Shown piece after piece: positions 1-19,340 of a stretch of 64,000 nt of DNA. Source of the stretch: Bacteroidota bacterium (GTDB lineage: Bacteria > Bacteroidota > Bacteroidia > NS11-12g > UBA9320); contig WGNA01000031.1 of the NCBI GenBank assembly GCA_016124755.1, forward strand, positions 1 to 64,000. Reading direction: 5' to 3'. Under the pieces are notes generated by a model. The model was not told the DNA's origin and made no database searches. It was given only the letters and a program-made list of their open reading frames with translations. A program made the translations under genes and the position numbers. Numbering within the stretch: the stretch's first letter is position 1; each line of letters opens with the position of its first letter.

Positions 1-963
1 ACTCTGACTTAATTCCCACCTTCCCATCGATTTATGAGCTTTAATACTTTGAGGGTCAATATCAAGGGCCCTTTCATAACACATTCTTGAATTTGAAAAA
101 TCATCGTTAAAGATGTATGCATCACCTAATTGCACCCAAACGCCGGAATTACTCTTGTATTCCAACAGCGTTTTTTCAAAATCAAGAATTGCACTATCGT
201 ACTTCTGAAGCTTAAAATAACAGTCTGCACGATAAAAGTTCGCTAGAGGATTCATCTTTTCATTTGAAGATTTGGTAAGGAACTCATACCTGTTTAAATC
301 GCAGATTGCTTCGTAGTATCGCCCAAGGTGATAGAAACATTCCCCTCGTTCGGAGAAGAAATCCGAGACTTTAGGGTTTAATGAAATTAACGGGTTGTAA
401 CAGAATAATGCCGAATCATATTTCTCTAAACATCTGAATGCATTTCCTTTTCCTAAATAACTTCGTTGACTATTCGGAATTTTTTTCAAAACGTGATCAA
501 AGTCATATACTGCATTTTGACAATCTTTAATACATAATTTGGCATAACCCCTAGCTTCGTAGGTTCTTTCCAGTTTTACAATTTTGTTGACATTTGTATC
601 CGGCAGTTTCTTATATTGTTCAATGGCAAGATTAAACGCTTCAATTGCCTCTGTACATTGTCGTAGTTCAAATAATGCGTCACCACGCCCTTTAATAATA
701 TCCGGATTTAAGGAATCATATTTTAACGCCTTGTTATAAGATTCAAGGGAGGCTTGATAATGTTCTCTATTGAATTCTGCCAAACCCTCTAACTCATAAG
801 TCTTGCTAACTTCTCTGTAATTTTGCGCAAGCGCATTACCCATACTGTACAAAAGAAATAAGATGTAAAAAAACAAATATTTAACCTCAATTTCTACAAT
901 ATTCTCTTCATTAAACTGCCGACTACAGTTACTATATACAATATATTTTAAACACCGGTTCAT
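1..963 (-). CDS. TPR-repeat protein; the 3' end lies beyond the window start. The start is ATG at 961-963 (975 or 843 are alternatives).
   Basis: An uninterrupted minus-strand reading frame runs from 963 to position 1. The translation reads MGNALAQNYREVSKTYELEGLAEFNREHYQASLESYNKALKYDSLNPDIIKG..., a 34-aa TPR-like periodicity with helix-pair signatures. The N-terminal extension has a hydrophobic stretch, YLFFYILFLLYS. Confidence 0.55.
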   Translation of the reverse strand, partial: MNRCLKYIVYSNCSRQFNEENIVEIEVKYLFFYILFLLYSMGNALAQNYREVSKTYELEGLAEFNREHYQASLESYNKALKYDSLNPDIIKGRGDALFELRQCTEAIEAFNLAIEQYKKLPDTNVNKIVKLERTYEARGYAKLCIKDCQNAVYDFDHVLKKIPNSQRSYLGKGNAFRCLEKYDSALFCYNPLISLNPKVSDFFSERGECFYHLGRYYEAICDLNRYEFLTKSSNEKMNPLANFYRADCYFKLQKYDSAILDFEKTLLEYKSNSGVWVQLGDAYIFNDDFSNSRMCYERALDIDPQSIKAHKSMGRWELSQS

Positions 964-988
964 TTTATACTCCATATCAATAAGATTA

Positions 989-1969
989 CTAATGCGAGTC
1001 AAGGATAGTTGTATTCCGTGGAAGGACGTCTGGTTTTTTGGCAAAATTTGGAGTGCCCGATTTTTTAACATTAACATCAGCACTCTTTTCAACAGTTTTC
1101 TCACCATCCTCTTTTGAATAGGTCACACCAACGGTTACTTCTAAATCACCGCTATATTCATTCTGTTCTTCAGGTGCTGACTGTTCGCAACCTTCTTCAC
1201 AATTTACTGGTTCGACTCCTTCAGCATGTTCTTCCGCTATTTCAACTTCCTCAGGTTCTTCTTCAGAAGCTGTAGATTTAACATCCACATTTATCTCACC
1301 AGACACTTCTATCTTATTTGGTGTTAAATTTATTATAAAATTACTATTGATTGAAGCGTTGGCAGGTGTTAAACCGGGTGAATTTTCAACCGGGGTTCCT
1401 GTTTTAATACTAAACTGGAACTGGACACCATTAAACTTAACTTCGTTATAGGGACTAAATGTAGTTTTTAGCCGCACGCCTCCTAGTGTTTCAAAACTCG
1501 ATTTATCTTCTAAAATAGGGAAATTCATTGCCGTGTAACAAGTTAACTTAATTTGCTTTTTGCTATCCTTCCATGAAGACATCAGTGGAATTGTTACCCC
1601 TAGTCCATAAGAAATTGGGCTTTGTTCTCTTTCTCGTCCATCAACGTCTATAAATTTGATTGGACAATTCCCTGTAAATTGATAGGGAGAATACCATGGA
1701 TAAGTTCGGAATAAGGGATCAACACTTAAAAATCTGCCGATACGCGGATTAAAAATCCTGAACCCATAGTCACATTGGTTACCATTGTTACTAATCTCGT
1801 TGTCATCCTCTTTTCCATTAAACCCAAACCTGTACCCCCCCTCAGGTGCGGCATAACCCGTCTCGGTAATTCCCATCCCAAAAGGATAGTAGTACATCCA
1901 GCCAAGATCCCTATAGGGACATCGTTTTATGCCAATACTATTTGGTGAGAAATGCATCTTTAGCATCAA
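989..1969 (-). CDS. orphan RHS repeat-associated core domain fused to a variable C-terminal polymorphic-toxin domain (a fragment; the N-terminal RHS repeats are absent)
   Basis: The N-terminal ~110 aa (YYYPFGM...RFGFNGKEDDNEISNNGNQCDYGFRIFNPRIGRFLSVDPL...YSPYQFTGNCPIKFIDVDG) match the canonical RHS core ending (...RYxxPxxGRFxxxDP...DPxG). An unrelated 200-aa acidic-rich C-terminal domain follows. The gene is only 326 aa, whereas full RHS proteins exceed 1000 aa. Its stop overlaps the integrase gene. Confidence 0.6.
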   Translation of the reverse strand: MMLKMHFSPNSIGIKRCPYRDLGWMYYYPFGMGITETGYAAPEGGYRFGFNGKEDDNEISNNGNQCDYGFRIFNPRIGRFLSVDPLFRTYPWYSPYQFTGNCPIKFIDVDGREREQSPISYGLGVTIPLMSSWKDSKKQIKLTCYTAMNFPILEDKSSFETLGGVRLKTTFSPYNEVKFNGVQFQFSIKTGTPVENSPGLTPANASINSNFIINLTPNKIEVSGEINVDVKSTASEEEPEEVEIAEEHAEGVEPVNCEEGCEQSAPEEQNEYSGDLEVTVGVTYSKEDGEKTVEKSADVNVKKSGTPNFAKKPDVLPRNTTILDSH

Positions 1970-3024
1970 ATTACGGCTTTTTGGGTAAGCTTTTCGAACA
2001 TAGCATCGGTTTGTTGGTCGAGGCGGTGCTGGTTGTATTTTACGTATTTGTAGAATTCTGTACTTCCGGGGGTGTGTCCGCTAATTTTACGAACCGTTGT
2101 TTCATCCACTCCGAGATTAAGCATCGTTGTAATAGCGGTTCGTCGCATGGTGTGGGTGCTCACCAGATCACAAAAACGGTATTGCTTTCTGCACTTGTTT
2201 GGTGCTTGCTGAATAAACGGAATTCCTCTCTGGGTTCTGTACTTGGGTAAGTCGTAAGTCCAACCGGCTAATTCAGCCAACTGTTTAATCTGTTTGTTGA
2301 AGTTTCTGCGATCCGTTTTGCGAAAGAGCATTTTACCGCGTGTTTTATTGCGTTGTACAATGGCAACGGCATAAGCGGGTAACTTAATACGGGTAAACGT
2401 ATGTGTCTTTTGAGAAATGGTTTTCAGGTACACCGAGTTGTCGCTCTGCCATTCCAGATTTTCGTTTTTCAGATTTAGTAAATCACTTACCCTCAACCCC
2501 ACTGTACAACCGAACACAAACAGGTCTTTGGTTCTTTTCTGCAACGCGTTAAGCCGGGCTTCAAATATCTCGTCCGAGATCAGAAATTGCAATTGTTCCG
2601 GTTCCAGCGCGATAATCTGTATGTCTTCTTTCCACACATGAAAGTTCTGGTAGAATGGTCCTAAGGAAATTCCCTTGTGGTGATTTACCCATTTTAAAAA
2701 GGTCTTTAGCATTTTTATATTATGCCCCACATAGTTGTCGAAATGCCCCTGGTCGTCGAACAGAAAATTGGTGAACTGCAGATACAGTTTTTCGTAGTAT
2801 CGCTTTTCCTGCTCAAACAGTCGCTTGTTATTACCGATTGATTTAATCCGCAGTTCAAATCCGGTCTTTTCAACGAACAGAATAAGCAACCGCCGCACAT
2901 ACCGGTAGTTGTTTTTTGAATCGGCAGTCATTTTTCTTCCGCCTTTCAGCATTCGTTTGTTGCGGTTGGTTGCCATCAAAAACGAATCGAACAGGGAGAG
3001 CATGTCGTATTGGGTTGTTTTCAT
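1966..3024 (-). CDS. tyrosine-type site-specific recombinase/integrase
   Basis: The C-terminal catalytic region reads LRVSDLL...HTMRRTAITTMLNLGVDETTVRKISGHT...FYKY, fitting the R...HxxR...Y pattern of phage-integrase-family recombinases. It is 352 aa and overlaps the downstream RHS fragment by 4 nt. Confidence 0.8.
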   Translation of the reverse strand: MKTTQYDMLSLFDSFLMATNRNKRMLKGGRKMTADSKNNYRYVRRLLILFVEKTGFELRIKSIGNNKRLFEQEKRYYEKLYLQFTNFLFDDQGHFDNYVGHNIKMLKTFLKWVNHHKGISLGPFYQNFHVWKEDIQIIALEPEQLQFLISDEIFEARLNALQKRTKDLFVFGCTVGLRVSDLLNLKNENLEWQSDNSVYLKTISQKTHTFTRIKLPAYAVAIVQRNKTRGKMLFRKTDRRNFNKQIKQLAELAGWTYDLPKYRTQRGIPFIQQAPNKCRKQYRFCDLVSTHTMRRTAITTMLNLGVDETTVRKISGHTPGSTEFYKYVKYNQHRLDQQTDAMFEKLTQKAVI

Positions 3025-3183: not shown

Positions 3184-3222
3184 AATAAAAAAGAAAGGCT
3201 TCATTAATTAATGAAGCCTTTC
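3184..3222 (-). terminator. rho-independent terminator for the lipoprotein gene 3247..3804
   Basis: A perfect 13-bp inverted repeat, aaaggcttcatta/attaatgaagccttt, spans 3194-3221. On the minus strand it is followed by a T-run (plus strand aaaaaag at 3186-3192). Confidence 0.5.
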
Positions 3223-5214: not shown

Positions 5215-5270
5215 TATTTTGAATAAGGAAGTTTCCAGACCAATACGGTATTTTACTGGTATTAATTTCT

Positions 5271-6310
5271 GTGGGGCTATAGCCACCCCTCCCCGAATGA
5301 AAGTTCGGGATCTTTTATTGGATCGGCAAAAATTTCGATGATATTAAGTGCTTATTTTCATTGAGATATTTGTATGAAAATATGTGCGGCTTGTTTCACG
5401 CAGAGACGCAGAAGATTGTGTGAATTGTTAAAGTTTAATTTGAGTTCGCAGAGGTTGCCCGAGAATGGAAAATTTGTTGTGAATGATTAGAGGCTATTTC
5501 CGCCGGGCAATTGCCACCCCTTACCCGGATGAAAGTTCGGTGTATTGAAATAACAAAACAAAAAACCAGACAATTTTAAACATTTACTTTTTTAAATGTA
5601 TTCCATTTTTCACGCAGAGTTCGCAGAGGACAACAACGAGCTTTAAGCTATACCGAATTATTAGATTTGAGAGGCGCAGATGTGTATGATGGAGAGTAAG
5701 TGGGTGCCATGTCTTAAAAAACATCTAATCATTATGCGGAACTCCCCTTAGCCAAATCCGTCATTGAGGGAGTAGAGAAAATTTTGTGGGCTATAGCCGC
5801 CCCTCCCCGGATGAAAGTTCGGGATCTTTTTAATGACCTGCAAAAACTCGGTTGAATTTAAATGCTTATTTCTGATTGATATAGTCGGAAAAAAATTGTG
5901 TAACTTGGTTCACGCAGAGGCGCAGGAGATGAGGAATGAGGAATTTAAATGTTTGGGTTATAACAGCTCACTGTTTTTGTTGAGGTGATGATGAGTTCGC
6001 AGAGTTGGCACTTAAACGTGCGGTTCTTACCTAATGAATTATTGAGTTGGATAGAACCTCATTTGGCCGACCACCCTCGCACCTTATGTTATGGAATTTA
6101 TTTCGCAGGTGTATTTCTGCGGGGCTATAGCCACCCCTCCCCGGATGAAAGTTAATCAGTTTGTGGTTTCGAAACAAATTAACCGCTTGAATTAAATGCT
6201 TATTTCTGAATGGGAAATGCCGGGCAATAGCCACCCCTCCCCGGATGAAAGATACAAATTCATTGCACATCAAACGCAACCGGATGATCAATTAAGTACT
6301 TAACCCAGAC
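5271..6310. repeat. mosaic intergenic repeat array, family A, cluster 1
   Basis: Five copies of the core GGCTATAGCCACCCCTCCCCGGATGAAAGTT. They are interleaved with the modules AAATGCTTATTTCT and TTCACGCAGAG(A/G)CGCAG. No ORF is supported. Confidence 0.8.
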
Positions 6311-6419
6311 ACCAACAAACTTTATAATTTTAATTCTTTATGCTCATAATAGATGTTTCTACGGGTGTAGATCATTTATCTTATTTTTAACTTTTTAATA
6401 AATGCTTATTGGTTTAAAT

Positions 6420-6765
6420 GCAAGTAAACCAACTTGTGGTTCACTTCCATTGTAGTAATAGAAAGAATAAAATGCATGGTGCGAAGCGGATCCTAAAACA
6501 AGAATAGGATCGCGTGGGTTGGCCGTCGGAAAGGTGGGATATCCACGGCGGGAATTTTTCATTTGGTAGAAAATCGGGAAAGTGCTTGACACCTCTTTCC
6601 CAGATTTTCAACAAATGATAAAGGGCGCTTACCGGCTTTCTTTCCGACTTGATTTTTTGCTTACTTTTTTATCAAGAAAAAAGTAAGAATATAAATTGTA
6701 AATTAATCCCCAACCAATTTACAATCTTGGTGTATCCATACGGAGAAGCATTTATTATTTTATTA
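6420..6765. repeat. family B repeat element, copy B1 (~340 bp)
   Basis: The same ~330-bp sequence recurs at 18215-18548 (same orientation) and inverted at 51760-51945, 53198-53505 and 54748-55040. It has a GC-rich core (GGATCGCGTGGGTGGGCCGTCGGAAAGGCGGGATAGCCCCGGCGGGAATTT) and an internal perfect hairpin, CTTACTTTTTTATCAAGAAAAAAGTAAG. Confidence 0.8.
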
Positions 6766-6788
6766 TACAAAAAAGAATTTTAAAGCTA

Positions 6789-7946
6789 TTAGCCCTCTTG
6801 TCCCGCCAACTTAATTCCCTGATTCCCTGCCCATGTACTAATGCTGTGTTTTGCAATAGCTGCAGCCATTAAATCCGGGAATAAATCGGGAGAACAACCA
6901 AAGACCGGTATTCCTAATTGTGCTAAAAAATCAGCATTAGAATGATCAAAAGAAGGATTTCCATTATCATCCAAAGCTAAAAGAGTTATTACCTGTACCC
7001 CGGAATTATTGAGTGCAGCAAAGCGCTTTCTCATTTCTTCCGTATCTCCTCCTTCGTATAAATCTGTAATTAAAAAGAGAATAGTATCCGTTGGTCTGCG
7101 AATAATCTGCTGACAATATTGAAGTGCCTGATTAATATCGGTTCCGCCTCCAAGCTGAACTCCAAATAACAGATCTACCGGATCTTTGAGATCTTCGGTA
7201 AGGTCGGCAACACTTGTATCAAATACCACCATGCGCGTATCCACCGCCGGAATAGAAGCGATCACCGCACCGAAAATACCGGAATACACAACGGATGCTC
7301 CCATAGAGCCGCTTTGATCAATACATAAAACGATGTCTCGAAGAGAACGACGTTTTTTCCCAAAACCGATTCGAGTTTCCGGAATAATGGTTTTGTAATC
7401 GGGTTGATAATGTTTCAGATTTTTCCGGATGGTTTCCGGCCAGTTTATTTCATTAAATCTGGGATTTCGGTTTCGAACAGATCGGTTAATACTTCCGGTT
7501 ATCGCCTGTCGGGTAGGGGATTCCAGCTTTCGAATTAATTCATCCACCACTTTTTTAATTACCATTCGGGCGGTGGCTTTTGTTTTTTGCGGAATCAATC
7601 TGCCCATGGTCATCAGATTGGCGACCAGATGAACATCCGGTACAACCGATTCCAGCATTTCCGGCTCGGTGAGCATTTGTTGAAGATTTAAACGACTGAG
7701 GGCATCCTTTTGTAATAATTGAACAGTTGATGCCGGAAAATATTCGCGTATATCGCCCAACCATCTTGCAACATTCGGAGAAGATGGGCCCAGTCCTCCT
7801 TTTCTGTCTGAATTATAAAGAGCTTCTAATGTTTTATCAATTCCGGATTCCAGTTTGTTCAATTCCATCGGAATTTCTGTCTGTACTTCTTTTCCGAGTA
7901 ATAACCGCCAGCGCTTTAATACTAATTCCTGCTCCTCTTTATTCAT
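6789..7946 (-). CDS. VWA (von Willebrand factor A) domain protein
   Basis: MIDAS motif VLCIDQSGSMGAS with downstream T and D residues. 385 aa. The start overlaps the stop of the upstream gene by 8 nt. Confidence 0.8.
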   Translation of the reverse strand: MNKEEQELVLKRWRLLLGKEVQTEIPMELNKLESGIDKTLEALYNSDRKGGLGPSSPNVARWLGDIREYFPASTVQLLQKDALSRLNLQQMLTEPEMLESVVPDVHLVANLMTMGRLIPQKTKATARMVIKKVVDELIRKLESPTRQAITGSINRSVRNRNPRFNEINWPETIRKNLKHYQPDYKTIIPETRIGFGKKRRSLRDIVLCIDQSGSMGASVVYSGIFGAVIASIPAVDTRMVVFDTSVADLTEDLKDPVDLLFGVQLGGGTDINQALQYCQQIIRRPTDTILFLITDLYEGGDTEEMRKRFAALNNSGVQVITLLALDDNGNPSFDHSNADFLAQLGIPVFGCSPDLFPDLMAAAIAKHSISTWAGNQGIKLAGQEG

Positions 7947-10206
7947 CGTTCTGCTTTTTGAGTTCTAACAATGATGCGTAAAATGGGATGATGAGCTGAG
8001 CACGTTTTTGGTCCCATCTCGTATCATCAGGTTCTGTTACACCGGATTGAATCTGTTGGAGTTTCAACGCTAACTGGCGCTTTTCTGCCGGAGAATAGGT
8101 CGAAACGGTTCTTCGTAATAATGGAATGATTTCCTGAAAAATTTGGTCGTTGAGGCCAATCAACCAGCGACTGATGATGTTTCTGATTACATCGTCGTAC
8201 AGTAAAATTGATGCACCGTCCATCAGAAATCCTTCAATCCAGGCAGCGGATGCCGAAGGTGGATTTGCAAGAGATAACGATCTGCCGAAAACGGATGCCG
8301 TTTCTTCTTCATCAAATTGATTTCGGTCGTAAAGGATCTTACAGCAGATGCCGTTCACCATTGGAGCACTCTGTTCAGAATCCGCAACTTTCTGAATGGT
8401 AGTAAACCAATCATCCGAAAATTCTTCCTCTTCCAACAACAAAACCGCATCGTGAACCTCGCGGATTCGGTTAGTGAGATTTAAGGCCTCTTCTTCATTA
8501 ATACCGTTGGGAGCATACTCCAGCCCCGGCAAAATCCGGTAAAAAACAGAACGCACAATAGAACTGATCATTACCAGATCCGTGTTTCGCACATTCCCGT
8601 ACCGTTTTATTCGAACCAATGGGGCAAAAGCTGCCATCAAAGCCGGAATATCTGACGACGATGCCGACAAATCATCGAGTCGTTGAAGCGCTGTTTCAAT
8701 TCCGGTTGTTAATTCAGTTGGAATCGCGTCTTCGATTAATGAACTGATTTCTGAAATGCTGTTGCAGTTCCCGGCGAGATGAATTAAAAATTGATTAGCC
8801 GCCAATTCAATAGTATTCCCCCAAATGGCTTTTTCAATTAATTCAATCACCATTTCCGGATCCCATTGAAGTGTCCATTCTTCTTTAAAAGTTCCTTTAC
8901 CGCGGCTGAATGCTTCATAAGCCCACTGAATTTTCAGAATCTTCAGCCGGTGGAATAGAATGCTTTTTTGGAGATCCGTTTCTTTTCGCAAATCAAGCGT
9001 AATGGATTTCGGAGTTTCCGACAGCTTTAACCGAAGTGATTTTACCGATTTTTCAAAATCCCGGTAAATGGGTGCCTGCGGTGTTCCTTCCGGTATTTCA
9101 CCGATCACAGAACCAACAATAAGATCGCGCCAGATGAGCTTCATCAGAACATCGTCACCCATGCACATCACGGCTATAGTGGATTCGATGTGCTCGTTAA
9201 GTCCCGGTTTGTTGTAATTGCGCAAAGCGGCCAGTGCATTCGACAACTTCACACTTTCAATTATGTGAGCTGATGAAACATCCGTTGCATTTTCGCGGAA
9301 CACAGCGGCCGTTTTGGAAAGCCAGTATGTTCCGTCATCATCCAGCATTTGCCACAGATAACGGTACCAGCCCGGAGACCGCACTCCCGCTCCGTACCCT
9401 GTGTGAAACGACATTCGGGTGTAGGTCCACGGAACCCAGGTCATTTCAATTTTCGTTTTCGGCAAACCCTTTAACAGGGAATTATCCCCTTTAAATTTTT
9501 TACTATCGGTTAATGCGGGAACGTGCCATGCTCCGCACACAACTACAATATTTTGGAATCCTTCCTTTTCGGTACTTTTCAGAATTTTCCGCATCCAGGC
9601 TTCCCGTAACGCATCGATTTTTTGCACATCCGGAAATTCCTCTCGCAATGCAGATATTACTTCAGTGATTCCATCAAAAACTTCCAGAGCTGTTTCTGCC
9701 CTTTCTACCTGATGTTCCCACCACAGATCTCCATCATCGAAACCGGTTAGCTTCGCCAGATATCCAAATGGATCCTCCTTAACCTGCTCTGAATCCTTAT
9801 CGTCTATCGTGTATCCTTCTATTTCCTGATCCGTTACCGTTACTGTTACTGTTACCGTTTCAGTTACCGTTTCAGTTACCGTCCCCGTCCCCGCCAACGC
9901 ATGATGCAACGGCAAATCCATGAACCGCACAGGAATATCTTTTTCCTGTGCGAACCGAATCGCATTCCACTCCGGAGAGTATTCTGTAAAAGGGTAGAAA
10001 TGTGCGTTTTTCGGATTATCAGTGGCATACGCCAGCATCGCAACCGGAGGCTTCATATTCGCATGGCTGAACCATTTGAGGAGGGTATCGCCTTCTGGCG
10101 GACCTTCAACCAGAATCACATCGGGATGTAATTCTTCCAACACATGTAAAACGTGTCTTGATGAACCAGGGCCATGGTGTCGGATACCTAAAACGTGAAC
10201 CGGCAT
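7939..10206 (-). CDS. DUF5682-like large protein of the MoxR/VWA cassette
   Basis: 755 aa. The N-terminus MPVHVLGIRHHGPGSSRHV is as I recall for DUF5682-family proteins. It contains an in-frame low-complexity TVTETVTETVTVTVTVT tract. Confidence 0.6.
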   Translation of the reverse strand: MPVHVLGIRHHGPGSSRHVLHVLEELHPDVILVEGPPEGDTLLKWFSHANMKPPVAMLAYATDNPKNAHFYPFTEYSPEWNAIRFAQEKDIPVRFMDLPLHHALAGTGTVTETVTETVTVTVTVTDQEIEGYTIDDKDSEQVKEDPFGYLAKLTGFDDGDLWWEHQVERAETALEVFDGITEVISALREEFPDVQKIDALREAWMRKILKSTEKEGFQNIVVVCGAWHVPALTDSKKFKGDNSLLKGLPKTKIEMTWVPWTYTRMSFHTGYGAGVRSPGWYRYLWQMLDDDGTYWLSKTAAVFRENATDVSSAHIIESVKLSNALAALRNYNKPGLNEHIESTIAVMCMGDDVLMKLIWRDLIVGSVIGEIPEGTPQAPIYRDFEKSVKSLRLKLSETPKSITLDLRKETDLQKSILFHRLKILKIQWAYEAFSRGKGTFKEEWTLQWDPEMVIELIEKAIWGNTIELAANQFLIHLAGNCNSISEISSLIEDAIPTELTTGIETALQRLDDLSASSSDIPALMAAFAPLVRIKRYGNVRNTDLVMISSIVRSVFYRILPGLEYAPNGINEEEALNLTNRIREVHDAVLLLEEEEFSDDWFTTIQKVADSEQSAPMVNGICCKILYDRNQFDEEETASVFGRSLSLANPPSASAAWIEGFLMDGASILLYDDVIRNIISRWLIGLNDQIFQEIIPLLRRTVSTYSPAEKRQLALKLQQIQSGVTEPDDTRWDQKRAQLIIPFYASLLELKKQNDE

Positions 10207-10212
10207 AAAGTT

Positions 10213-11295
10213 TTAAATCAAATCACGACAAGAGCGATACACATCTTTCCAGCCATCCCTGCTTTTCATAACGGTATCCATATATTCCTGAAAAACCACT
10301 TTATCCTGCACCGGATCTTTAACAATGGTTCCGATGATACCGCTTGCCAGATCATCTGCCTGAAGTTTACCGTCTCCAAAATGTTGTGATAATGCGAGCC
10401 CACTGTTCATAACCGAAATAGCCTCTGCGGTTGAAAGAGTGCCGCCGGGAGATTTCAGCTTGGTTTTTCCGTCGATGGTAACACCGTTCCGGAGTTCGCG
10501 GAAAATGGTTACAACTCTTTTTATTTCTTCTGTAAAAGATTTATCGGGTGTGAATTCGGAGGTTTTCAGAAATCCTGTAACACGCTGCCGGACAATTTCC
10601 ACTTCTTCTTCAATGGTGGCCGGAACTGGAAGAATTACCGTATTAAATCTTCTTTTTAATGCACTGGATAAGTCATTAACCCCTTTATCGCGGTTGTTGG
10701 CAGTTGCAATAACATTAAAACCTCTCGTTGCCTGCACTTGTGTGTTGAGTTCGGGAACCGGCAGCATTTTTTCGGAAAGAATGGTAATCAACGAATCCTG
10801 AACATCTGAACCGATACGGGTTAATTCCTCTACCCGAACAATTTTTCCATGTTTCATGGCTCGCATTACCGGTGTTTCAACCAATGCCCGTTCCGAGGGA
10901 CCTTCCGATAAAAGCAAAGCGTAATTCCATCCGTACCGAACCGCTTCTTCGCTGGTTCCGGCTGTTCCCTGAACCAAAAGTCCGGAGTCGCCGGTGATCG
11001 CTGCTGTTATGTGCTCCGACACCCATGACTTTGCAGTACCGGGAAGTCCGTACAGTAACAAAGCCCGGTCGGTTGTGAGGGTTGCAATGGCAATCTCCAT
11101 GAGTCTTTTATTACCGATGTATTTGGGCGTTATCTCAAATCCGCTTTTTAGTTTTCCTCCCATCAAATACGTTAGAACCGAAGAAGGTGACATCTGCCAG
11201 CCTTCCGGTTTTTTCCCGGAATCCGATTCTTTAATGGCATTTAATTCAGCTTCGAATTCCTTTTCTGCGGGTAGTCGTAATATGTTTTCAGACAT
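10213..11295 (-). CDS. MoxR-family AAA+ ATPase
   Basis: Walker A LLYGLPGTAKS, Walker B/sensor IVRVEEL...ATANNRD, and arginine finger SALKRRF. 360 aa. Confidence 0.85.
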   Translation of the reverse strand: MSENILRLPAEKEFEAELNAIKESDSGKKPEGWQMSPSSVLTYLMGGKLKSGFEITPKYIGNKRLMEIAIATLTTDRALLLYGLPGTAKSWVSEHITAAITGDSGLLVQGTAGTSEEAVRYGWNYALLLSEGPSERALVETPVMRAMKHGKIVRVEELTRIGSDVQDSLITILSEKMLPVPELNTQVQATRGFNVIATANNRDKGVNDLSSALKRRFNTVILPVPATIEEEVEIVRQRVTGFLKTSEFTPDKSFTEEIKRVVTIFRELRNGVTIDGKTKLKSPGGTLSTAEAISVMNSGLALSQHFGDGKLQADDLASGIIGTIVKDPVQDKVVFQEYMDTVMKSRDGWKDVYRSCRDLI

Positions 11296-11300
11296 AATAA

Positions 11301-12794
11301 TTAATTGAGAAGATTATTTGAATTGAGTTGCTTTTTAAGATTAATGATATCCAGCATTTCGTCTAAGCGTTTTATCCAGAAATGATTTTCCAATTTGGTG
11401 AATTCAGTTTTGTAGGATTCTAACATTCCTGTAATGGAAACCGGCAAATAGAGCGAGAGTTCACGGATTTTCGGGCTATCTACATTGTACGGATGTTCCA
11501 GTAATTGATTAAAAATAATTTCAGAAACACCCGGATCTATTACCGTATATTCACCATCTGTAAACTGATCTATTAATTCATTTATCTGCATGGATCTGGC
11601 TAGTTTCTGAGCCAGTTCTTTCTTTTCATAAACTGAGAAAAACGAAATCATTTCGCTACTTATCAAAACCTTTTCAGATTCGATCAGCGCTTTAGCCCAT
11701 TTTTTATTTTTAAAATGAGTTGCACTCATGGCGGCAAAAGGAGCCAGAAAATCAACATTCTCATGGCTTAATAATAGTTGAATTAACTCATACTCGGAAA
11801 TGCCGAGTGTTTGGGAAATTAATTCAGGATTTGTTAGGCCAATGATTTGACCGGCGATAAATACCGCATCTGTTAATTGCTTTATGTTCGATGTTTCCTC
11901 AACTCCGGCGTCGAGTAATATTTTTTCCGGTTTGCCGGGAAAAGCAAAATGGATAACCTTTTTCTTTTTAATTAACATTACCCGTTGCTCATCAATCTGA
12001 ATGGCTTTTTTTAAATAATTTAGACACGCTTTCGATATATCGGAGCCGGGAATAAAACACAAAGCGCGATATGCTGCATTACGTACTTTAATACTCCGAT
12101 CGGATAAACAGGATTCAAAAAATGGCTGATCATCAGAATTAATTTTCTGGCTCAGGGCATCAACTAAAAACTCCCGCATATCGGCGTTTTCGGCAGAAAA
12201 ACTTTCTGATAAAATGAGTCGTGCAGTGTTTGGGTCGTTCTTTAGTAATGATTTAAACCATTGTTTTCGAATCGCCGGAGAGCCGGTTTCCCAAATATTT
12301 TCATCCGAATCAGAAATACTTGATTTATTCGCCCAATCCGGATTAATACTTCGCAGCCATTTCCCGGTTTCGCCCTCGACATCCGACAATAATTGCGGAT
12401 CTATTTTATTTCTTTGATTAAAGTACATAAGATCTGAAACCAAAAATCCGGGTACAATTATTCCTCGTTTTCTGAAATTCGTCAAAAGATAAGAAACGAG
12501 GACGGCGTCTGATTCCTGAAGATATTTTTTGAAGTAATGCGTTATTTCAGCAGGGGCAATGGGTTTTGTCTCGTTTGGACAAACCGGGAATTCGCCTTTA
12601 ATTTCAACTCCGTTAAATCCGGCTTCGTTGATGGCAAATACAAGTGCAATGGATTTCAGAAACGCGTCTTCTGTATCGCTTTCATTTTCTGCGACAATCT
12701 GCAATAATTCCTTTGGTAAATCAAGTATACTCCCTCCGGCTCTGCTGGTTCCGAGAGTGGCGGTTTTGGTAATATTTGTTGTGTTAATTTTCAA
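11301..12794 (-). CDS. alpha-helical protein (DUF5691-like) of the MoxR/VWA cassette
   Basis: 497 aa with no catalytic motifs. Its position between the SWIM and MoxR genes matches the recurrent annotated neighbourhood. Confidence 0.45.
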   Translation of the reverse strand: MKINTTNITKTATLGTSRAGGSILDLPKELLQIVAENESDTEDAFLKSIALVFAINEAGFNGVEIKGEFPVCPNETKPIAPAEITHYFKKYLQESDAVLVSYLLTNFRKRGIIVPGFLVSDLMYFNQRNKIDPQLLSDVEGETGKWLRSINPDWANKSSISDSDENIWETGSPAIRKQWFKSLLKNDPNTARLILSESFSAENADMREFLVDALSQKINSDDQPFFESCLSDRSIKVRNAAYRALCFIPGSDISKACLNYLKKAIQIDEQRVMLIKKKKVIHFAFPGKPEKILLDAGVEETSNIKQLTDAVFIAGQIIGLTNPELISQTLGISEYELIQLLLSHENVDFLAPFAAMSATHFKNKKWAKALIESEKVLISSEMISFFSVYEKKELAQKLARSMQINELIDQFTDGEYTVIDPGVSEIIFNQLLEHPYNVDSPKIRELSLYLPVSITGMLESYKTEFTKLENHFWIKRLDEMLDIINLKKQLNSNNLLN

Positions 12795-14095
12795 AAGGAA
12801 TAATAAATTGAATTAAACCAAATCCCCAGAATCATGAATGTAGTTCTGTGAATACAGCCAAAAATGCTTGTTGGCTTGCCACCAGTTATTGATAATGCCT
12901 TCATAATTTCCAATTCCGGATTTATTAATTCAAGCCCAATATTATCGCTGTCCTTTAGCATCCATTTCTGATTGTGCCGAACAACGGAGACTGCTGAAAA
13001 AACAACCGGGAATTCGTTCCCGAAGGGTTGATTAATCCGGTAAGCTGTTTTCGCATCTAAAGCTAGGGTAATGCCGGAAAAACCGGATATGACGGTACAT
13101 CCGGATGAGGTTTTTCGTAAAGCGGAAGGAATAGCCCGGAGGTTTTGTTTGCCGGGATAAAAATGGACATCCGCCTCGATTGTGGTATTGGCGAGATAAT
13201 GTGTTTCCATGATTTGTCCGGGTGCAAAGAATTGAAGTAGTTGAGCGAACCGTTTATCTTGTTCACTATACATCCAGATTTTTTCCATCGTGAGTCGGTC
13301 CATCTCTGATTGCTGACAGGAAAGAACCATCCAGTTTCCTGTAATTGCATCCGTTTTTAATACTTCTTCTTTTGTGATATTCCAGCCGATCCACTGTTCG
13401 AGATCGCTGTGGCGTTCTTCATCCAGTACGTTTCGGTTTACATACGTTTCACTTAGCAGGTAAAGCGATGATGCCTGATACATTAATTCTTCCGGCCAGC
13501 TTTGTTGGCTGAAATCTATTTCATTGAATTGCCTGAGTCGGTTTGCTAATCCGCCAGCCTGAGCATCAACCATTCGGGAAATAATATTTGCATTAAACTG
13601 AAACCGGTTTTGTGGAATGGAAACGATGCCATTTCGAACGAGATCTTTCAACCAAAGTTGAAGTTCTTCGATACCGTTTCTGACTTTTTCTTCCCGTGAT
13701 TCAATTCGCTTTGCTTTGGCCTCTGGATCCACGGATTTTGATTCCGATGATTCCTTTTTTTCGGCACGTGAGTTTCGTTTATCGAGCCATTCCTGAACAT
13801 CTTCAGGATTTGGATTCTGGGTAAATTCTGATGTGTTTCGGAGTTGAAGGATCAGAATGGAGAGTCCGTGTTTACAGGGAAATTTTCGACTTGGGCACGA
13901 ACATTTAAAGGCGATGTTACCAAGATCAACCATTACCCGATACGGAAGTTTCCCGCTACCTTTACAATTTCCCCAGAGAGCGTTTTCACTTCTGCCCGTA
14001 TCAGACCAATTCGAAACAACCGCTAATTTCTCCCCGGCTTTCACAGAGGCTTCATCAGGGGCAAGTCGTGTTATTTCGTCGAGACTAAAAGACAT
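12791..14095 (-). CDS. SWIM zinc-finger protein
   Basis: CSCPSRKFPCKHGLSILI gives a CxCx(n)CxH SWIM signature. The probable start is MSFSLDEI at 14093-14095; the longer ORF up to 14200 is less likely. There is a 4-nt ATGA overlap with the downstream gene. Confidence 0.7.
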   Translation of the reverse strand: MSFSLDEITRLAPDEASVKAGEKLAVVSNWSDTGRSENALWGNCKGSGKLPYRVMVDLGNIAFKCSCPSRKFPCKHGLSILILQLRNTSEFTQNPNPEDVQEWLDKRNSRAEKKESSESKSVDPEAKAKRIESREEKVRNGIEELQLWLKDLVRNGIVSIPQNRFQFNANIISRMVDAQAGGLANRLRQFNEIDFSQQSWPEELMYQASSLYLLSETYVNRNVLDEERHSDLEQWIGWNITKEEVLKTDAITGNWMVLSCQQSEMDRLTMEKIWMYSEQDKRFAQLLQFFAPGQIMETHYLANTTIEADVHFYPGKQNLRAIPSALRKTSSGCTVISGFSGITLALDAKTAYRINQPFGNEFPVVFSAVSVVRHNQKWMLKDSDNIGLELINPELEIMKALSITGGKPTSIFGCIHRTTFMILGIWFNSIYYSF

Positions 14096-14304
14096 GGTAT
14101 CGGGGTAAAAATAAGAATTGAATTTCACGATTCTGAAAAGGAGCGAAAAACTTTTTATGCCCAATCGACAGTCGTTTTTGCGGGCATAATAATCAGACAA
14201 GCCTGCTGCATTTGTAATTTTTATTTTTAACTGTTGGGTCCAGACTTAACAAGAATGACCAAAGCGCGATTTGCAGAATTAATAAATCGCTACTTTCGAA
14301 ATAC

Positions 14305-14829
14305 TTGAAGAATGATATGAAAAGTAAAAGCGTAAAAGGTTGGATTATACTTTTTTTATTGGGTCTGATTTCATTTACTGTTTCTCCGGAACCATTTCAC
14401 AACCAGCAGGCAATCCGGCAGTTTCCTTCACCAGTTGGCTACGTTAATGACTTCGATTCAATATTTACTTTTAGCCAGAAATACGAACTGGACTCCATTT
14501 TACGACAGTTTGAAAAATTAACGACTAATGAATTTGCTATTGTTACAGTTGGAGATATTAATCCGTATGATTCACTTCAGCATTTTTCAGAAGATCTCGG
14601 TAATTTCTGGGGTGTTGGAAAAGAGGGAAAAGACAACGGATTGTTACTGGTGATCTGTTCGGGATGTCGCGGCGTATATCTGGAACCGGGACTTGGAACA
14701 CGCAGGACATTGCAGACAGCGCAATTGCAGGAAGTGATTAATTATACGATTGTTCCAAAATTTAAATCGGGGAAGTATTATGAGGGTACAAAAGCCGGTG
14801 TTTTGAAATGTATAGAGCTTTGGAAATAA
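14305..14829 (+). CDS. TPM (TLP18.3/Psb32/MOLO-1) domain protein, secreted
   Basis: Signal peptide. Motifs YVNDFDSIF, EFAIVTV and GVGKEGKDNGLLLVI. Confidence 0.65.
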   Translation: MKNDMKSKSVKGWIILFLLGLISFTVSPEPFHNQQAIRQFPSPVGYVNDFDSIFTFSQKYELDSILRQFEKLTTNEFAIVTVGDINPYDSLQHFSEDLGNFWGVGKEGKDNGLLLVICSGCRGVYLEPGLGTRRTLQTAQLQEVINYTIVPKFKSGKYYEGTKAGVLKCIELWK

Positions 14830-14840
14830 TTTGTTAAGAA

Positions 14841-15524
14841 ATGTTGAAAGATGACACCAGGAAATTTGTAACATACCAAAAATATAATTTTCCGGAAGAG
14901 GCAAGTCAGTTAATTGAGTTGCTTGAAGAGAATGAGATTACGTATGAATGGGAAAATACCTCGCCGACCTTTGACATAACTTTTTCGCTCAATACATCTC
15001 AAAATGAATTTCGGTTAAAAGTGAGAGCCGAAGACTTTTTGAAAATTGATGAGCTTTTAAAGGAAAGAGCACTTTCGAATTTGTCCGAAATTCCTGCGGA
15101 CTATTATCTCCGTGATTTTACAGATAAGGAACTTTTAGAATTGATTTCAAAAAAGGAGGAATGGTCTATCCAGGATGTAATTTGGGCACGGGAAATTTTG
15201 GAGAAAAGAGAAATTCCGATCAGTGATAAAATTGTTGAAACTCTTCAGGAAGTTCATGGAAGAGAATTGCGTGAACCGGAATCAGTGCCGGAAGGTGTAT
15301 TTCAAAGAAAGTTAATATTGGCTTTTTTCGGAAATCCGCTAAATATTTTGGAAGGATGGAGTTACTGGCAGGCATCTCAAACTGACCCATCGAGGCAGAC
15401 GGGAGAGAAGATGTATATTTATGATGCTAAAACCAGGGAATTGGGAAAGCGTTTGATGACCAGAAGTATATTCTTTTTATTTTTTTGGATGTTGGTTGTT
15501 CTTTATTGGTTGGTGCTTAATTGA
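14841..15524 (+). CDS. hypothetical protein with a C-terminal TM helix
   Basis: 227 aa. Hydrophobic C-terminus IFFLFFWMLVVLYWLVL. Coding potential is consistent. Confidence 0.5.
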   Translation: MLKDDTRKFVTYQKYNFPEEASQLIELLEENEITYEWENTSPTFDITFSLNTSQNEFRLKVRAEDFLKIDELLKERALSNLSEIPADYYLRDFTDKELLELISKKEEWSIQDVIWAREILEKREIPISDKIVETLQEVHGRELREPESVPEGVFQRKLILAFFGNPLNILEGWSYWQASQTDPSRQTGEKMYIYDAKTRELGKRLMTRSIFFLFFWMLVVLYWLVLN

Positions 15525-15544
15525 ATATTCGGATGGAGATTTTG

Positions 15545-16790
15545 GTAGGGCTGTGGCACCCTTGCTCGGATGAAAATTAATAGATTTGGAAATTTAAACA
15601 AACAAACGTGCAGAAAAATATACTTAATGTTGGATTGGAAATGCTGGGGTAAGAACCACCCCTCCCCGGATACAAGATAAGCGATTCCTGAATCGTAATC
15701 AAATATACGTGCAGAAATAAATGCTTAAAGTTGGTTCGAAAAAGCTGGGGCAATAGCCACCCCTCCCCGGATGAAAGTTCGGGATCTTTTATTGGATTGG
15801 CAAAAATTCGGATGATATTAAGTACTTATTTTCAATGAGATGTTTGTGTCTAAAAATGTGTGGATTGTTTCACGCAGAGACGCAGGAGAATGGGAAATAT
15901 GTTGTGAATGATTAGAGGCTATCTCAATACTTCTACGAATATTTGAATTGAAGGTGGGACACTATTTCCGCGGGGCAGTAGCTACCCCTCCCCGGATGAA
16001 AGTTACTCGATTAATTGGTCTGGAACAAATAAACGAGCTGAATTAAATGCTTAATGTTGTATAGAAAAGGTTTGGGTAAGAACCACCCCTCCCCGGATGA
16101 AAGTTCGGGAACTTTTATTGGATCGGCAAAAATTCGGATCATATTAAGTACTTATTTTCAATGAGATGTTTGTGTGTAAAAATGTGTGGATGGTTTCACG
16201 CAGAGAGGCAGGGGAATGGGTGAAATATGTTGTGAATGATTAGAGGCTATCTCAATACTTCTACGAATATTTGAATTGAAGGTGGGACACTATTTCTGCG
16301 GGGCAGTAGCTACCCCTCCCCGGATTAAAGTTACTCGATTAATTGGTCTGGAACAAATAAACGAGCTGAATTAAATGCTTAATGTTGTATAGAAAAGGTT
16401 TGGGTAAGAACCACCCCTCCCCGGATGAAAGTTCGGGATTCTTTGATTAGTTCCCAAATTAAAGAGCAGAAATAAGTGTTTATTTGATTTAAAGGTCAAT
16501 GAGTATTTCAAGTAGTTCACGCAGAAGCGCAGATCTTTGGTTCGTTTTGAATGCGAATATGCTATAGGAATATTCAGGTTTTGAAAATGCATCGATGGGA
16601 GTCGCGGAGAATGCGGTATGCCAGAAATCCAACCGATTATTCAAATGTTTGTTCTTGTAATTTCCGGCCGGGCAATAGCCACCCCTCCCCGAATGAAAGT
16701 TCGGGAATTGTTATCAAACATCAACTATCGGATACCCGGATAAGCACTTATTTTTGTTTGCACAACTTCAGTTCAGATGAAAGTTCAAAA
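15545..16790. repeat. mosaic intergenic repeat array, family A, cluster 2 (includes a ~340-bp near-identical tandem duplication)
   Basis: About 8 copies of the CCACCCCTCCCCGGATGAAAG core. The segment 15745-16085 is repeated almost exactly at 16085-16430. Confidence 0.8.
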
Positions 16791-16858
16791 CCAAATCGGC
16801 TACGGTAGTTGTACAGGAGACGGCCATTGAACATCCTTTTTAAACAACAACTGAGCAA

Positions 16859-17191
16859 ATGAACTTCTACGTGAATCAGCCGGAACCCAATCGAAGTTGT
16901 CTGCTCGCTTTGAAGGATTTAATTCTTCAATCGGACCCGGAAATGATCGAAACAATTAAATACGGAATGCCGTGTTTCTGTTTGGGTAAAAAAATAATAT
17001 GCTATTTGTGGACCGATAAAAAAACGCGTGAACCGTACATTCTTTTTGCGGATGGTAATAAAATGAAGCATCCCAAACTGGAAACCGGTGATCGTTTACG
17101 AATGAAAATTTATTGGGTAAATCCGAATGAAGATCTTCCTGTTGCGGAAATAAATGAAGTGTTGGTACTGGCAATAACCTTGGTGAGATAA
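16859..17191 (+). CDS. DUF1801 (YdhG-like) domain protein
   Basis: 110 aa with the pattern ...IKYGMPCFCLGKKIICYLW.... Confidence 0.55.
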   Translation: MNFYVNQPEPNRSCLLALKDLILQSDPEMIETIKYGMPCFCLGKKIICYLWTDKKTREPYILFADGNKMKHPKLETGDRLRMKIYWVNPNEDLPVAEINEVLVLAITLVR

Positions 17192-17201
17192 TAGAAATAG
17201 A

Positions 17202-18194
17202 ATGATCGGGAAAAACAATTCCAATACAAGATTGCGTTACCTGTTGGAGATGCTCGATAATTGTCCGAATGAAATACAGTCTCAGAGAATGAGATTAATC
17301 CTGATTCTATGTATTGTTCTTAATTCTAATATCCAGGCTCAGAATTATACAAAGTCAGATTCCGTACTACTTAATAATTATTACGACACAATTCCGCCTC
17401 AATCGGAATGGATGTGGGGTGAACAAGTAAACAGGGTAAATAAATATGGTTTTGTGGAGGGGAAACAAATTCGGTTTGATTCGAAAGGAAATTTAATAAC
17501 TATCACAATGTTTCCGGAGAAAGTACTTTATCAACAAGCAAATTATGTTTGGAAAGCAGAATTTGAAAATGATACTTTAGTGTTGATGAGTGATTCTTCC
17601 GGTTCCGAAATACGATGGTTTTCTAATGGAATTATAGAAGAAGCTATTACCCAATATCGCTGCGGGGATGATAAGTTCGTTTCAAAATATAAAGCCAATA
17701 TCAATGGATTAGTGACGGAAACATCTTTACTCCGATATTACTGGAAAGAAGATACCAGTATGTTTAATCATTGTTTTCGCAAATGCAGGTTTGTTTCCGA
17801 ATTAATATATTCTTTTAAATATTATAATAATGGAAATCCAAAATATTCATTTAATAACGATACCGCAATTTATTGGAATGAAAATCAAACCATTCGAACA
17901 AAGATGTATCCGGATGGTTCTGTAACCTTTAATGACGGAGGCAAAGTAATTGACAGGCAATTTACATGGTGGGAGCCGGGCGACAGTTGTTCGGAAGATG
18001 TTCAGGTAAAGATGGTGGTATCCTACGAATTAGAAGATGTTATTGATTTATATGTGTACAAGATGATACCGAATAAAAGAGCGGAATACTTCCGGTGGAA
18101 ATGGGATCAATCAGGTCGTCGGCTTGTATCGGCAAGTAACTGGGAAGGGGAATTGCCATGGAAAAGGTTTTCAGAATTTAATGATTTATACTAA
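17202..18194 (+). CDS. hypothetical secreted protein
   Basis: Probable signal peptide MRLILILCIVLNSNIQAQ (from an internal Met). 330 aa. Confidence 0.5.
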   Translation: MIGKNNSNTRLRYLLEMLDNCPNEIQSQRMRLILILCIVLNSNIQAQNYTKSDSVLLNNYYDTIPPQSEWMWGEQVNRVNKYGFVEGKQIRFDSKGNLITITMFPEKVLYQQANYVWKAEFENDTLVLMSDSSGSEIRWFSNGIIEEAITQYRCGDDKFVSKYKANINGLVTETSLLRYYWKEDTSMFNHCFRKCRFVSELIYSFKYYNNGNPKYSFNNDTAIYWNENQTIRTKMYPDGSVTFNDGGKVIDRQFTWWEPGDSCSEDVQVKMVVSYELEDVIDLYVYKMIPNKRAEYFRWKWDQSGRRLVSASNWEGELPWKRFSEFNDLY

Positions 18195-18214
18195 TATGTT
18201 TCTCCGGTTAATTA

Positions 18215-18548
18215 CACCAACTTGTGGATCACTTCCATTTAAGTATTAAAAAGAACAAAATGCATTGTGCGAAGCGGATCCTAAAACAAGAATAGGATCG
18301 CGTGGGTGGCCGTCGGAAAGGCGGGATAGCCCCTGGGGGAATTTCTTATTTGGTAGAAAATCGGGGAAAATGCTTGACACTTCTTTCCCCAGATTTTCAA
18401 CAAATGATAAAGGGAGCTTGGGCAGCTTTTTTTCGACTTGATTTTTTGCTTATTTTTTTATCAAGTAAAAAGTGAGAAGAAATGCGAATGTAAATCAATA
18501 CCAAACTGATTTACAATAATGGTGTATCCAAACGAACGAGCATTTTAT
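18215..18548. repeat. family B repeat element, copy B2
   Basis: About 85% identical to 6420-6765, including the hairpin CTTATTTTTTTATCAAGTAAAAAGTGAG. Confidence 0.8.
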
Positions 18549-18749
18549 ATTAATTCGTTAAGCCTAAAAAATAAAATGTTTCAGTACAATGGATAAGTAT
18601 AAAAATATTAAAATAGGAACATTTGTTCTGGCCTGATAATGAATTTGTAAGAGATGAAAAGGCACTCAATATTTTTTTCGAGATGATAGATGAAAATGAT
18701 TTGTTGTATTGCTTAATGAGTTATTTTCGCTTTTGTAATAGCCACCTGT

Positions 18750-19337
18750 ATGAAGAAATGGATTGTGATATTTCTCACGATTTCTGTGCTTTTTAATTCG
18801 TGCAAAGAAGAAGTTGAAAGCGTTCCCGAATGCGAAAACTGTTTGCAGTTTACCGATCCGCAAGGAGTTAAACGAACCTTTACCATCTACTCAAAGGAGC
18901 TTTCCGATAATACCGGATACTTCGACACCGCAACCGGTAAGCAGGTTCCAAACACCAAACTAAATTTGTACTTCTCTGAATCTCCAACCAGTATTATCGG
19001 TATAACCTTATACACCAATGTGCCTTTCGATTTTAAAAGAAATTATACAAGTACCGGCAAGGTGGATTATTTGCCCGGCGGAAATATCAGTGGTGCATAT
19101 AACAAATCAATTGTTGTGTTTTGGGATGGAGGCAACACTGCGGCTTATTCGTATCTGGCGCTAAAATCAGATTTTAGGGTTGAGAATTATTCTTACTCTG
19201 AAAATGTATTCGATCAGCACATAATTAAGGGTGAATTGGATTTGGTTTTTGAACGCAGCGACTCCAGCCAAACAATACCGTCATTTGGAGTGAACAGGGC
19301 AGAAATCAACAAGGCTTTCTTAAATATTAAATTCTAA
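18750..19337 (+). CDS. hypothetical lipoprotein
   Basis: MKKWIVIFLTISVLFNSCKEE lipobox. Confidence 0.6.
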   Translation: MKKWIVIFLTISVLFNSCKEEVESVPECENCLQFTDPQGVKRTFTIYSKELSDNTGYFDTATGKQVPNTKLNLYFSESPTSIIGITLYTNVPFDFKRNYTSTGKVDYLPGGNISGAYNKSIVVFWDGGNTAAYSYLALKSDFRVENYSYSENVFDQHIIKGELDLVFERSDSSQTIPSFGVNRAEINKAFLNIKF

Positions 19338-19340
19338 CAG

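Follow-up and report, generated by a model that had tools for sequence, protein, structure and literature searches.

The stretch of DNA analysed here (the window) comprises 64,000 nt from a Bacteroidota bacterium (GenBank assembly GCA_016124755.1, contig WGNA01000031.1, positions 1 to 64,000), and its source contig measures 68.9 kb and belongs to a Bacteroidetes metagenome-assembled genome (MAG). At its left edge, all on the minus strand, lie a tyrosine recombinase gene, an open reading frame (ORF) made up of the tail of an RHS core domain and a variable C-terminal domain (CT), hereafter the cassette ORF, and a gene for a TPR-repeat protein. An earlier note, made from the sequence alone, had described the second of these as an orphan RHS cassette coupled to a phage-type recombinase. 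Here we report the anatomy of this unit, its counterparts in related loci and what they suggest about its function.

Gene layout at the left edge of the window

The features considered, in the order in which they are read on the minus strand, are the following.

3804 to 3247, minus strand: lipoprotein-like gene, upstream of the recombinase gene
3193 to 3222, minus strand: intrinsic terminator of the lipoprotein-like gene, a 13-pair hairpin followed by a T-run (perfect 15+15 palindrome)
1966 to 3024, minus strand: tyrosine recombinase, 352 amino acids (aa), intact ORF (PF00589, E = 3e-11; MBI1308069.1)
989 to 1969, minus strand: whole cassette ORF (core tail and CT), 326 aa from a TTG (MBI1308068.1)
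1835 to 1897, minus strand: zone where recombination is predicted by analogy with relatives, corresponding to one of the two arms of an expected inverted repeat
1637 to 1891, minus strand: RHS repeat-associated core domain, ORF residues 27-111, ending in IDVDG (TIGR03696)
992 to 1636, minus strand: CT, putative toxin tip, 215 aa after DVDG
1 to 975, minus strand: TPR-repeat protein, incomplete at the contig end, whose N terminus bears the hydrophobic segment KYLFFYILFLLYSMGNALA/Q

The terminator of the lipoprotein-like gene marks the upstream limit of the recombinase-cassette-TPR unit, and no terminator-like site was found at either the recombinase-cassette or the cassette-TPR junction. The TPR gene begins at 975, 13 nt past the stop of the cassette ORF. 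The GC content is 0.431 for the recombinase gene, 0.392 for the cassette ORF and 0.349 for the TPR gene. No tRNA gene, flanking or direct repeat or mobile-element gene flanks the recombinase in the window.

The recombinase-cassette junction reads ATT TGA TGC, that is TTGATG, in which the recombinase stop TGA (1968-1966) overlaps the start codon of the cassette ORF by 1 nt if translation begins at the ATG at 1966 (325 aa), or by 2 nt if it begins at the TTG at 1969 (326 aa); the 4-nt ATGA overlap reported in the earlier note is not what the junction contains. The cassette ORF is identical to MBI1308068.1, which is annotated as hypothetical protein GC181_15795. The same note had considered that the ORF could be a frameshifted piece of a larger gene, a possibility that we rejected since the sequence upstream of it is an intact recombinase gene.

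The left edge of the window is a true contig end: the TPR protein is labelled 'partial' at NCBI and its last residue is encoded by bases 3-1. Hence, a partner rhs gene beyond base 1 could not be seen. Exact look-ups of the recombinase and cassette proteins, as a way of extending the sequence leftward, gave only a shorter Logan contig.

The recombinase

Beyond its PF00589 domain, the recombinase gave only weak matches to XerA, XerC and XerD models, far below their cut-offs, and it had no sequence match to any solved recombinase structure, even by profile. The integron-integrase model TIGR02249 scored 14.6 bits against a cut-off of 265. Its catalytic residues are intact: R178, K206, H291, R294, H317 and Y327 are invariant across 31 homologues. 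The AlphaFold 2 (AF2) model, with a predicted local distance difference test (pLDDT) score of 89.7, could be superposed over its full length on XerA, the Tn1549 integrase, Cre, XerH and the core of the lambda integrase. On the basis of this model, the protein is a two-domain Xer/Cre-like enzyme that lacks an arm-binding domain. It has 2080 homologues, and those bearing a name are from Bacteroidota.

The cassette ORF and the TPR gene

Residues 27-111 of the cassette ORF align with positions 1-75 of the 76-position profile TIGR03696 (Rhs_assc_core), and the score of 44.2 bits exceeds the curated cut-off of 32.5; a Pfam scan of the ORF gave no match. The ORF contains YRFGFNGKE, NPRIGRFLSVDPL and IDVDG (IDVDG-RE, residues 105-111), the motifs from which the earlier note had deduced that it starts within an RHS core and then switches to an unrelated CT. 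This description holds, and with it the alignment of the N-terminal 110 aa to RHS cores on which the note had made its claim depend. Homology to full-length RHS proteins starts at YYPFGM. The cassette is an orphan in the sense proposed, given that the N-terminal and YD-repeat shell is absent and that the gene directly upstream is that of the recombinase. At the end of the core the window has DVDG-R, as compared with D(V/L/P)DG-L/E in relatives, with R where L is usual.

The CT was predicted to be all-beta, with a long acidic low-complexity stretch. In an exhaustive search of 1.84 billion representative proteins its sole homologue was itself, and a word-indexed search of 5.8 billion proteins retrieved none; scans against Pfam, NCBIfam and PHROG gave no family match, nor was any motif detectable. 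A single-sequence AF2 model was unusable (pLDDT 35). The length of the CT, 215 aa, is close to the median tip lengths of related loci, 251 aa for those parked in orphan cassettes and 250 aa for those fused to full-length genes. We regard it as a putative toxin tip.

The next gene downstream had been said to encode a TPR-repeat protein, and its product indeed matches TPR_1, TPR_2 and TPR_16 with E-values from 1e-20 to 1e-23. In a database search at E <= 1e-10 the sole match of this protein was itself, labelled 'partial', and it matches no immunity family. By its position and its predicted export signal it fits the part of a candidate immunity protein of the cassette.

Recombinase-linked cassettes in related loci

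We collected 160 related loci, 80 from species-representative genomes and 80 from metagenomes, using the recombinase as the sole bait, and RHS cores were sought in all their six-frame ORFs with a profile grown from the core fragment of the window (individual loci are indicated below by L numbers). The genome loci are from Chitinophagales, Cytophagales, Flavobacteriales and unclassified Bacteroidia. An RHS core directly adjoins the recombinase gene in 57/80 genome loci and in 61/80 metagenome loci, hence in 118 of the 160, with the cassette within ~130 nt of the recombinase across several Bacteroidota orders; one flank is shorter than 400 nt in 25 of the other 42. The genes on the far side of the recombinase vary from locus to locus, and the cassette is the only constant neighbour. 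This constancy, together with the absence of tRNA genes and repeats in the window, argues against the integrase of a phage or of an integrative and conjugative element that happens to lie there, an assignment that we rejected also for the absence of mobile-element genes. Of the earlier designation of the upstream gene as a phage-integrase-family recombinase, we therefore retain the tyrosine recombinase and replace the passing phage integrase with a conserved partner of the cassette.

Two main layouts were distinguished. In type A, to which the window belongs, the cassette is downstream of the recombinase gene and co-directional with it; in type B, the commoner of the two, it is upstream and divergent. 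The distance between the recombinase stop and the codons for PFG(M) is 80 nt in the window and 70-134 nt in 21 other type A loci (383 nt in one locus), and in those relatives whose cassette frames were translated this interval contains stop codons. The overlap between start and stop codons in the window thus looks incidental, not being conserved in relatives, and the translational coupling previously suggested finds no counterpart in them. Three whole contigs (L076 1-4911, L058 1-6814 and L164 1-4445) represent a third layout, in which a cassette 5' end points inward from either end of the contig and the recombinase gene lies in the middle. Here the recombinase gene itself would be flipped, and such a flip is seen in the pair L113/L127 described below. 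Loci L061, L065, L079, L082 and L029 have from three to six cassettes in both orientations.

The tips are extremely diverse: 120 of them fell into 102 clusters, 94 being singletons, and several clusters mix parked and fused members. No family match was found for 18 of the 20 recombinase-side cassettes scanned against Pfam. Every listed cassette is directly followed by a small gene with a signal peptide, a lipoprotein signal or a transmembrane segment, and none of eight such genes scanned against Pfam reached a family cut-off. The window fits this pattern, with a 215-aa tip followed by a TPR protein that its sequence suggests to be exported or anchored.

Among the relatives with long flanks, the closest is L003 (=L002), in which positions 10001-21047 include a single full-length DUF6443-RHS gene, encoding over 3100 aa, and a downstream gene of 116 aa. 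In the subfamily closest to the window, the cassettes L083 11434-13164 and L005 11066-12655 start at HPFGM and have ~190-225 extra residues before the rest of the core, corresponding in L083 to Laminin_G_3.

Inverted repeats and the facing full-length gene

The geometry was analysed in those loci whose sequence extends for 8 kb or more beyond the recombinase towards the cassette. Another RHS core, convergent with the cassette, was present in 9/9 type A and 21/24 type B loci, and a convergent full-length RHS gene in 8/9 and 17/24, respectively; a full-length example carries DUF6443 and RHS repeats. That the cassettes are oriented oppositely to the full-length gene suggests a switch by inversion, and not tandem displacement of the classical kind.

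Comparison of each locus with itself revealed inverted repeats of 40-330 bp with 85-100% identity, which link the core start of the full-length gene with the 5' end of the cassette (78 bp at 100% in L026, 77 bp at 100% in L055, 98 bp at 100% in L056 and 329 bp at 97% in L030). The typical repeat is ~60 bp and starts sharply at the codons for (D)YYPFGM, upstream of which the cassettes show stop codons and non-RHS sequence. Precisely, over 46 inverted pairs the identity between the two arms was ~0.3 upstream of position -12 relative to the P codon, >=0.9 from -2 to ~+45, third codon positions included, and ~0.5 by +100, with a sharp outer boundary ~10-12 nt before the P codon. The third positions of the YYPFGM codons differ between loci, so the repeat is kept identical within a locus and not across the family. 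A universal DNA recombination site was rejected on this ground; a small ATCC-N5-GGAT dyad within these codons is a mere product of them.

The zone 1835..1897 of the window comprises the codons for M-YYYPFGM (ATG at 1897-1895, CCT at 1885-1883) and ~50 nt downstream of them. By analogy with its relatives, we predict that recombination would take place here, and the 80-nt gap between recombinase and cassette is typical of the layout.

A 10-nt motif, AGTTCTTTGA, precedes ~40% of the silent RHS cassettes at two preferred distances, ~38 nt before GAYTAYTAT in recombinase-side cassettes and 10-17 nt before it in internal cassettes (for example at L019 5240; L055 9897; L061 6243, 8329 and 9900; L082 1827, 6057 and 7963). 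In the cassette frame it reads *FFE and resembles VFFDN (GTGTTCTTTGATAA) of full-length RHS proteins of the HYYPFGL type; the window lacks it, as do most of the full-length partners. Nor does it fit the TAnnTTTG box of Bacteroidetes promoters. The motif may belong to a capture-platform side of these loci.

Both arrangements in nature

An all-against-all comparison of the loci gave three pairs that are at least 99.5% identical and yet differently arranged (L048/L165, L113/L127 and L145/L150), so that the evidence for both orientations comes from relatives of the window.

L048 is a soil MAG and L165 a metagenome contig. One segment of L048 (9775-13027), which contains the recombinase and the cassette 5' end, aligns collinearly with L165 1385-4637, and another (6665-8129), with the core of the full-length RHS gene, its tip and the downstream gene, is the reverse complement of L165 1-1465 (99.9% identity). 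In a three-way alignment L165 tracks the cassette flank of L048 up to ...GGGCAGG, continues with a 52-bp block, TTACTATCCCTTCGGGATGCAAATGCCTGGAAGGAAGTATTCGGCTAATGGA, identical in both arms, and then follows the full-length gene. L165 is the predicted inversion product: the same tip is expressed in one assembly and parked beside the recombinase in the other. That orphan cassettes of this kind join full-length rhs genes, as the earlier note had held on general grounds, is here seen directly.

In one contig of the pair L113/L127 the cassette and its lipoprotein gene have the upstream, divergent position, whereas in the other contig they lie downstream in the co-directional one; the switch is located between two single-nucleotide polymorphisms that bracket GGAAGGAA. 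In both pairs the crossovers fall inside the repeat zone. Neither could be a misassembly, because the identical blocks are 52 bp or shorter, less than the reads and than the large k-mers that we assume for the assemblers. The pair L145/L150 differs by an inversion between 324-bp repeats, with 3.6 kb of the inverted segment visible in both contigs.

Contigs with the same recombinase from many samples (P0037 and P0003) gave only concordant contigs that break at one point, with no alternative states among them. Assembly breaks are common at such loci. For the loci L086-L091, which have the identical recombinase P0037 and come from different samples (11 contigs read, 6 shown), those four of the contigs shown that reach far enough have their ends clustered within ~25 nt, at a point ~1.16 kb past the recombinase gene and immediately upstream of a convergent gene with a signal peptide, a reproducible assembly break.

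Proposed mechanism and alternative explanations

We consider that the window is probably the recombinase-proximal end of an invertible, shufflon-like locus for the switching of RHS tips. According to this proposal, the recombinase gene would stand 80 nt upstream of a promoter-distal, shell-less cassette consisting of ~85 residues from the end of the RHS core, a variable CT and a gene for a presumably exported protein, here the TPR protein. As in the related loci, a full-length DUF6443-RHS gene would lie a few kb away, facing the cassette, and a ~60-bp inverted repeat at the (D)YYPFGM codons would be formed by the beginning of the cassette and the corresponding position of the full-length gene. 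Recombination between the two arms would flip all the intervening DNA, so that the expressed RHS shell would acquire the silent tip with its immunity gene, and the previous tip would come to be parked beside the recombinase. With several cassettes in both orientations, the locus would work as a multi-segment shufflon.

Some parts of this proposal are further from the data than others. We infer that the recombinase, rather than RecA, catalyses the inversion, and that the genome of the window carries a facing rhs gene beyond the contig end, the latter by analogy with the related loci. The CT would be a toxin and the TPR protein its immunity protein; immunity genes of parked cassettes may be expressed and so protect clone-mates after a switch. 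Slightly better than even, in our judgement, are the prospects of the more general proposal, according to which many environmental Bacteroidota carry a dedicated Xer/Cre-like recombinase family that operates a 'toxin shufflon': by inverting DNA between (D)YYPFGM repeats, it would exchange the tip of a DUF6443-RHS protein together with the immunity gene. Capture of new cassettes may occur at this site as well, and the CT-TPR pair of the window would be one of hundreds of uncharacterised toxin-immunity modules.

Several observations weigh against tip switching by a dedicated recombinase. The contig stops 2 kb downstream of the recombinase, hence the key geometry is unseen in this genome, and neither a second RHS core nor an inverted-repeat partner was found within the window. 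The CT, with no homologue and with its long acidic low-complexity stretch, may be inactive. No DNA site is conserved across loci, as the repeat follows a protein motif and the third positions of the YYPFGM codons vary, and repeats of 50-330 bp are in principle usable by RecA. The inversion that separates L145 from L150 could be mimicked by misassembly across the 324-bp repeat. Among the relatives whose recombinase is 62% identical to that of the window, L003 (=L002) has the recombinase convergent with one full-length RHS gene, with no second cassette and no repeat, an arrangement that may represent an unloaded or different state of the system; L004 has no RHS within 3.6 kb, and L083 has a cassette and no full-length RHS within 7 kb.

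The alternative that survives best, although we think it unlikely, is a capture platform similar to rAID-1 loci or integrons, in which the recombinase would capture toxin-immunity cassettes, the array would be a store of polyimmunity and the RHS fragments would be by-products. Polyimmunity loci beside XerC/D recombinases are known (PMC3482391), and both genes downstream of the window's recombinase agree in number and GC content with what is required of rAID-1 loci (10.1101/471110). Multi-cassette arrays such as those of L061, L065, L079 and L082 and the occurrence of AGTTCTTTGA ahead of ~40% of the cassettes, at two preferred distances, also suit this explanation, as does the extreme diversity of the CTs, since 94 singletons out of 120 imply frequent acquisition. 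Capture gives no account, however, of why the cassettes face a full-length RHS gene, of why the homology boundary falls at the same place in the RHS frame or of the tip exchange observed with the full-length gene, and every cassette has a toxin-side module, unlike rAID-1 arrays as described. Capture and inversion are in any case compatible, as both could use the same site.

Far less probable is that the cassette is an ordinary orphan rhs tip, produced by C-terminal displacement and RecA-dependent recombination, next to an integrase from an unrelated mobile element or of unrelated role. Orphan tips in enterobacteria and their homologous recombination into full-length genes are established as presented in PMC3967940, displaced-tip arrays have been reported in Flavobacteriales (PMC13183296), and the repeats of some loci are long enough for RecA. 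Displacement would have to be reconciled, however, with a cassette within ~130 nt of the recombinase in 118/160 loci that were retrieved by the recombinase alone, in several orders and among otherwise unrelated neighbours, with cassettes that are inverted relative to the full-length gene and not in tandem, and with the fact that neither a tRNA gene nor direct repeats nor further genes of a mobile element surround the recombinase of the window. Least credible of all is that the cassette ORF has no function today, being a degenerate pseudogene or an open frame arisen by chance, as the lack of CT homologues, the low-confidence structure, the acidic low-complexity stretch and the DVDG-R in place of the usual DxDG-L stand against an open frame of 326 codons with a full-length, above-threshold core match, a CT of a length typical of the family and the fact that singleton CTs are the rule in related loci.

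Other features of the window

Three further features were noted outside the recombinase-cassette-TPR unit. Positions 5270-6254 contain five copies of an element of 37-84 nt (GGGCTATAGCCACCCCTCCCCGGATGAAAGTT...), 100-514 nt apart, in an ORF-poor stretch (5215-6790), with no Rfam match. A 755-aa ORF with a short TV/TE repeat, TGTVTETVTETVTVTVTVTD, lies at 7939-10206 on the minus strand, within a five-gene minus-strand cluster (6789-14200). On the plus strand, positions 43749-49244 hold an ORF of 1831 aa that has no RHS core match.

Implications

The rhs genes were named for rearrangement, and the exchange of their tips has so far been ascribed to homologous recombination. If a dedicated recombinase flips the tips, the choice of toxin would be programmed and reversible, a form of bet-hedging at the population level comparable to the switching of pili, tail fibres or restriction specificity. 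Inversion would also account for the assembly breaks at these loci. A recombinase with a target in coding sequence could serve as a tool, and its gene would be a marker for a very large pool of toxin-immunity pairs. Cultured carriers are available among the loci, namely Flavobacterium sp. C4GT6, Xanthocytophaga flavus NT2B1 and Ferruginibacter sp. HRS2-29.

Comparison with known systems

With integrons the loci share, in the commoner layout (type B), a recombinase gene divergent from a promoter-less cassette array. They differ in the recombinase, as the score against the integron-integrase model given above indicates, and in the fate of the cassettes, which join a large gene in frame and are not expressed from Pc.

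The rAID-1 loci consist of a tyrosine recombinase, co-directional low-GC genes and repeated intergenic motifs, and are defined by a recombinase >44% identical to BF9343_RS08045 and by at least two co-directional downstream genes with a GC content <=41%; close homologues of their recombinases are restricted to Bacteroidales (10.1101/471110). The cassette ORF (0.392) and the TPR gene (0.349) of the window, both co-directional and downstream, lie within these limits of number and GC content. The array of orphan immunity genes is not found here, the first downstream gene being an RHS core with its CT. More generally, the loci resemble rAID-1 in belonging to Bacteroidota, in the order of a tyrosine recombinase followed by co-directional, lower-GC cassettes of polymorphic-toxin conflict and in recurrent inter-cassette motifs (10.1101/471110; PMC12247911). 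In contrast to them, rAID-1 loci are described as containing immunity genes only, for defence, and neither inversion nor a full-length toxin gene facing the array is reported for them. The loci considered here are from Chitinophagales, Cytophagales, Flavobacteriales and unclassified Bacteroidia, and it is by description, not by recombinase identity, that we set the two apart.

Classical orphan rhs tips, as portrayed in Jackson 2009 and Koskiniemi 2014 (PMC3967940), are in tandem downstream of the full-length gene, and homologous recombination leads to deletion or duplication. The enterobacterial arrangement has in common with ours a shell-less fragment that begins within the conserved core, a variable CT and a downstream gene, which make up a store available for fusion with the full-length gene. 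Here, by contrast, the cassettes are inverted and, at the level of the family, tied to a dedicated recombinase gene.

Inversions that alter genes are exemplified by pilV and Rci of R64, by the tail-fibre switches of phages Mu (Gin) and P1 (Cin) and by phase-variable type I restriction-modification hsdS genes with an adjacent tyrosine recombinase. The main text of a survey of gene-altering inversions (PMC9881135) makes no mention of Rhs or toxins. In the literature on Rhs together with inversion, shufflon, recombinase, inverton or DUF6443 we found no description of recombinase-linked inversion of RHS tips, within a coverage outside which most subscription journals lie. The loci differ from shufflons in that the target is a polymorphic RHS toxin, each segment coming with its own putative immunity gene, and in that the repeats are locus-specific and tied to a protein motif instead of being a fixed short site; the recombinase has no sequence match to solved recombinases. 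As in shufflons and other inversion switches, a recombinase gene stands beside alternative 3' segments that are silent and oriented oppositely to the expressed gene, inverted repeats mark the junction between constant and variable parts, and both states occur in populations, the last two being here features of the relatives; inversion swaps the C-terminal part of a single protein, and there are arrays of several segments in mixed orientations.

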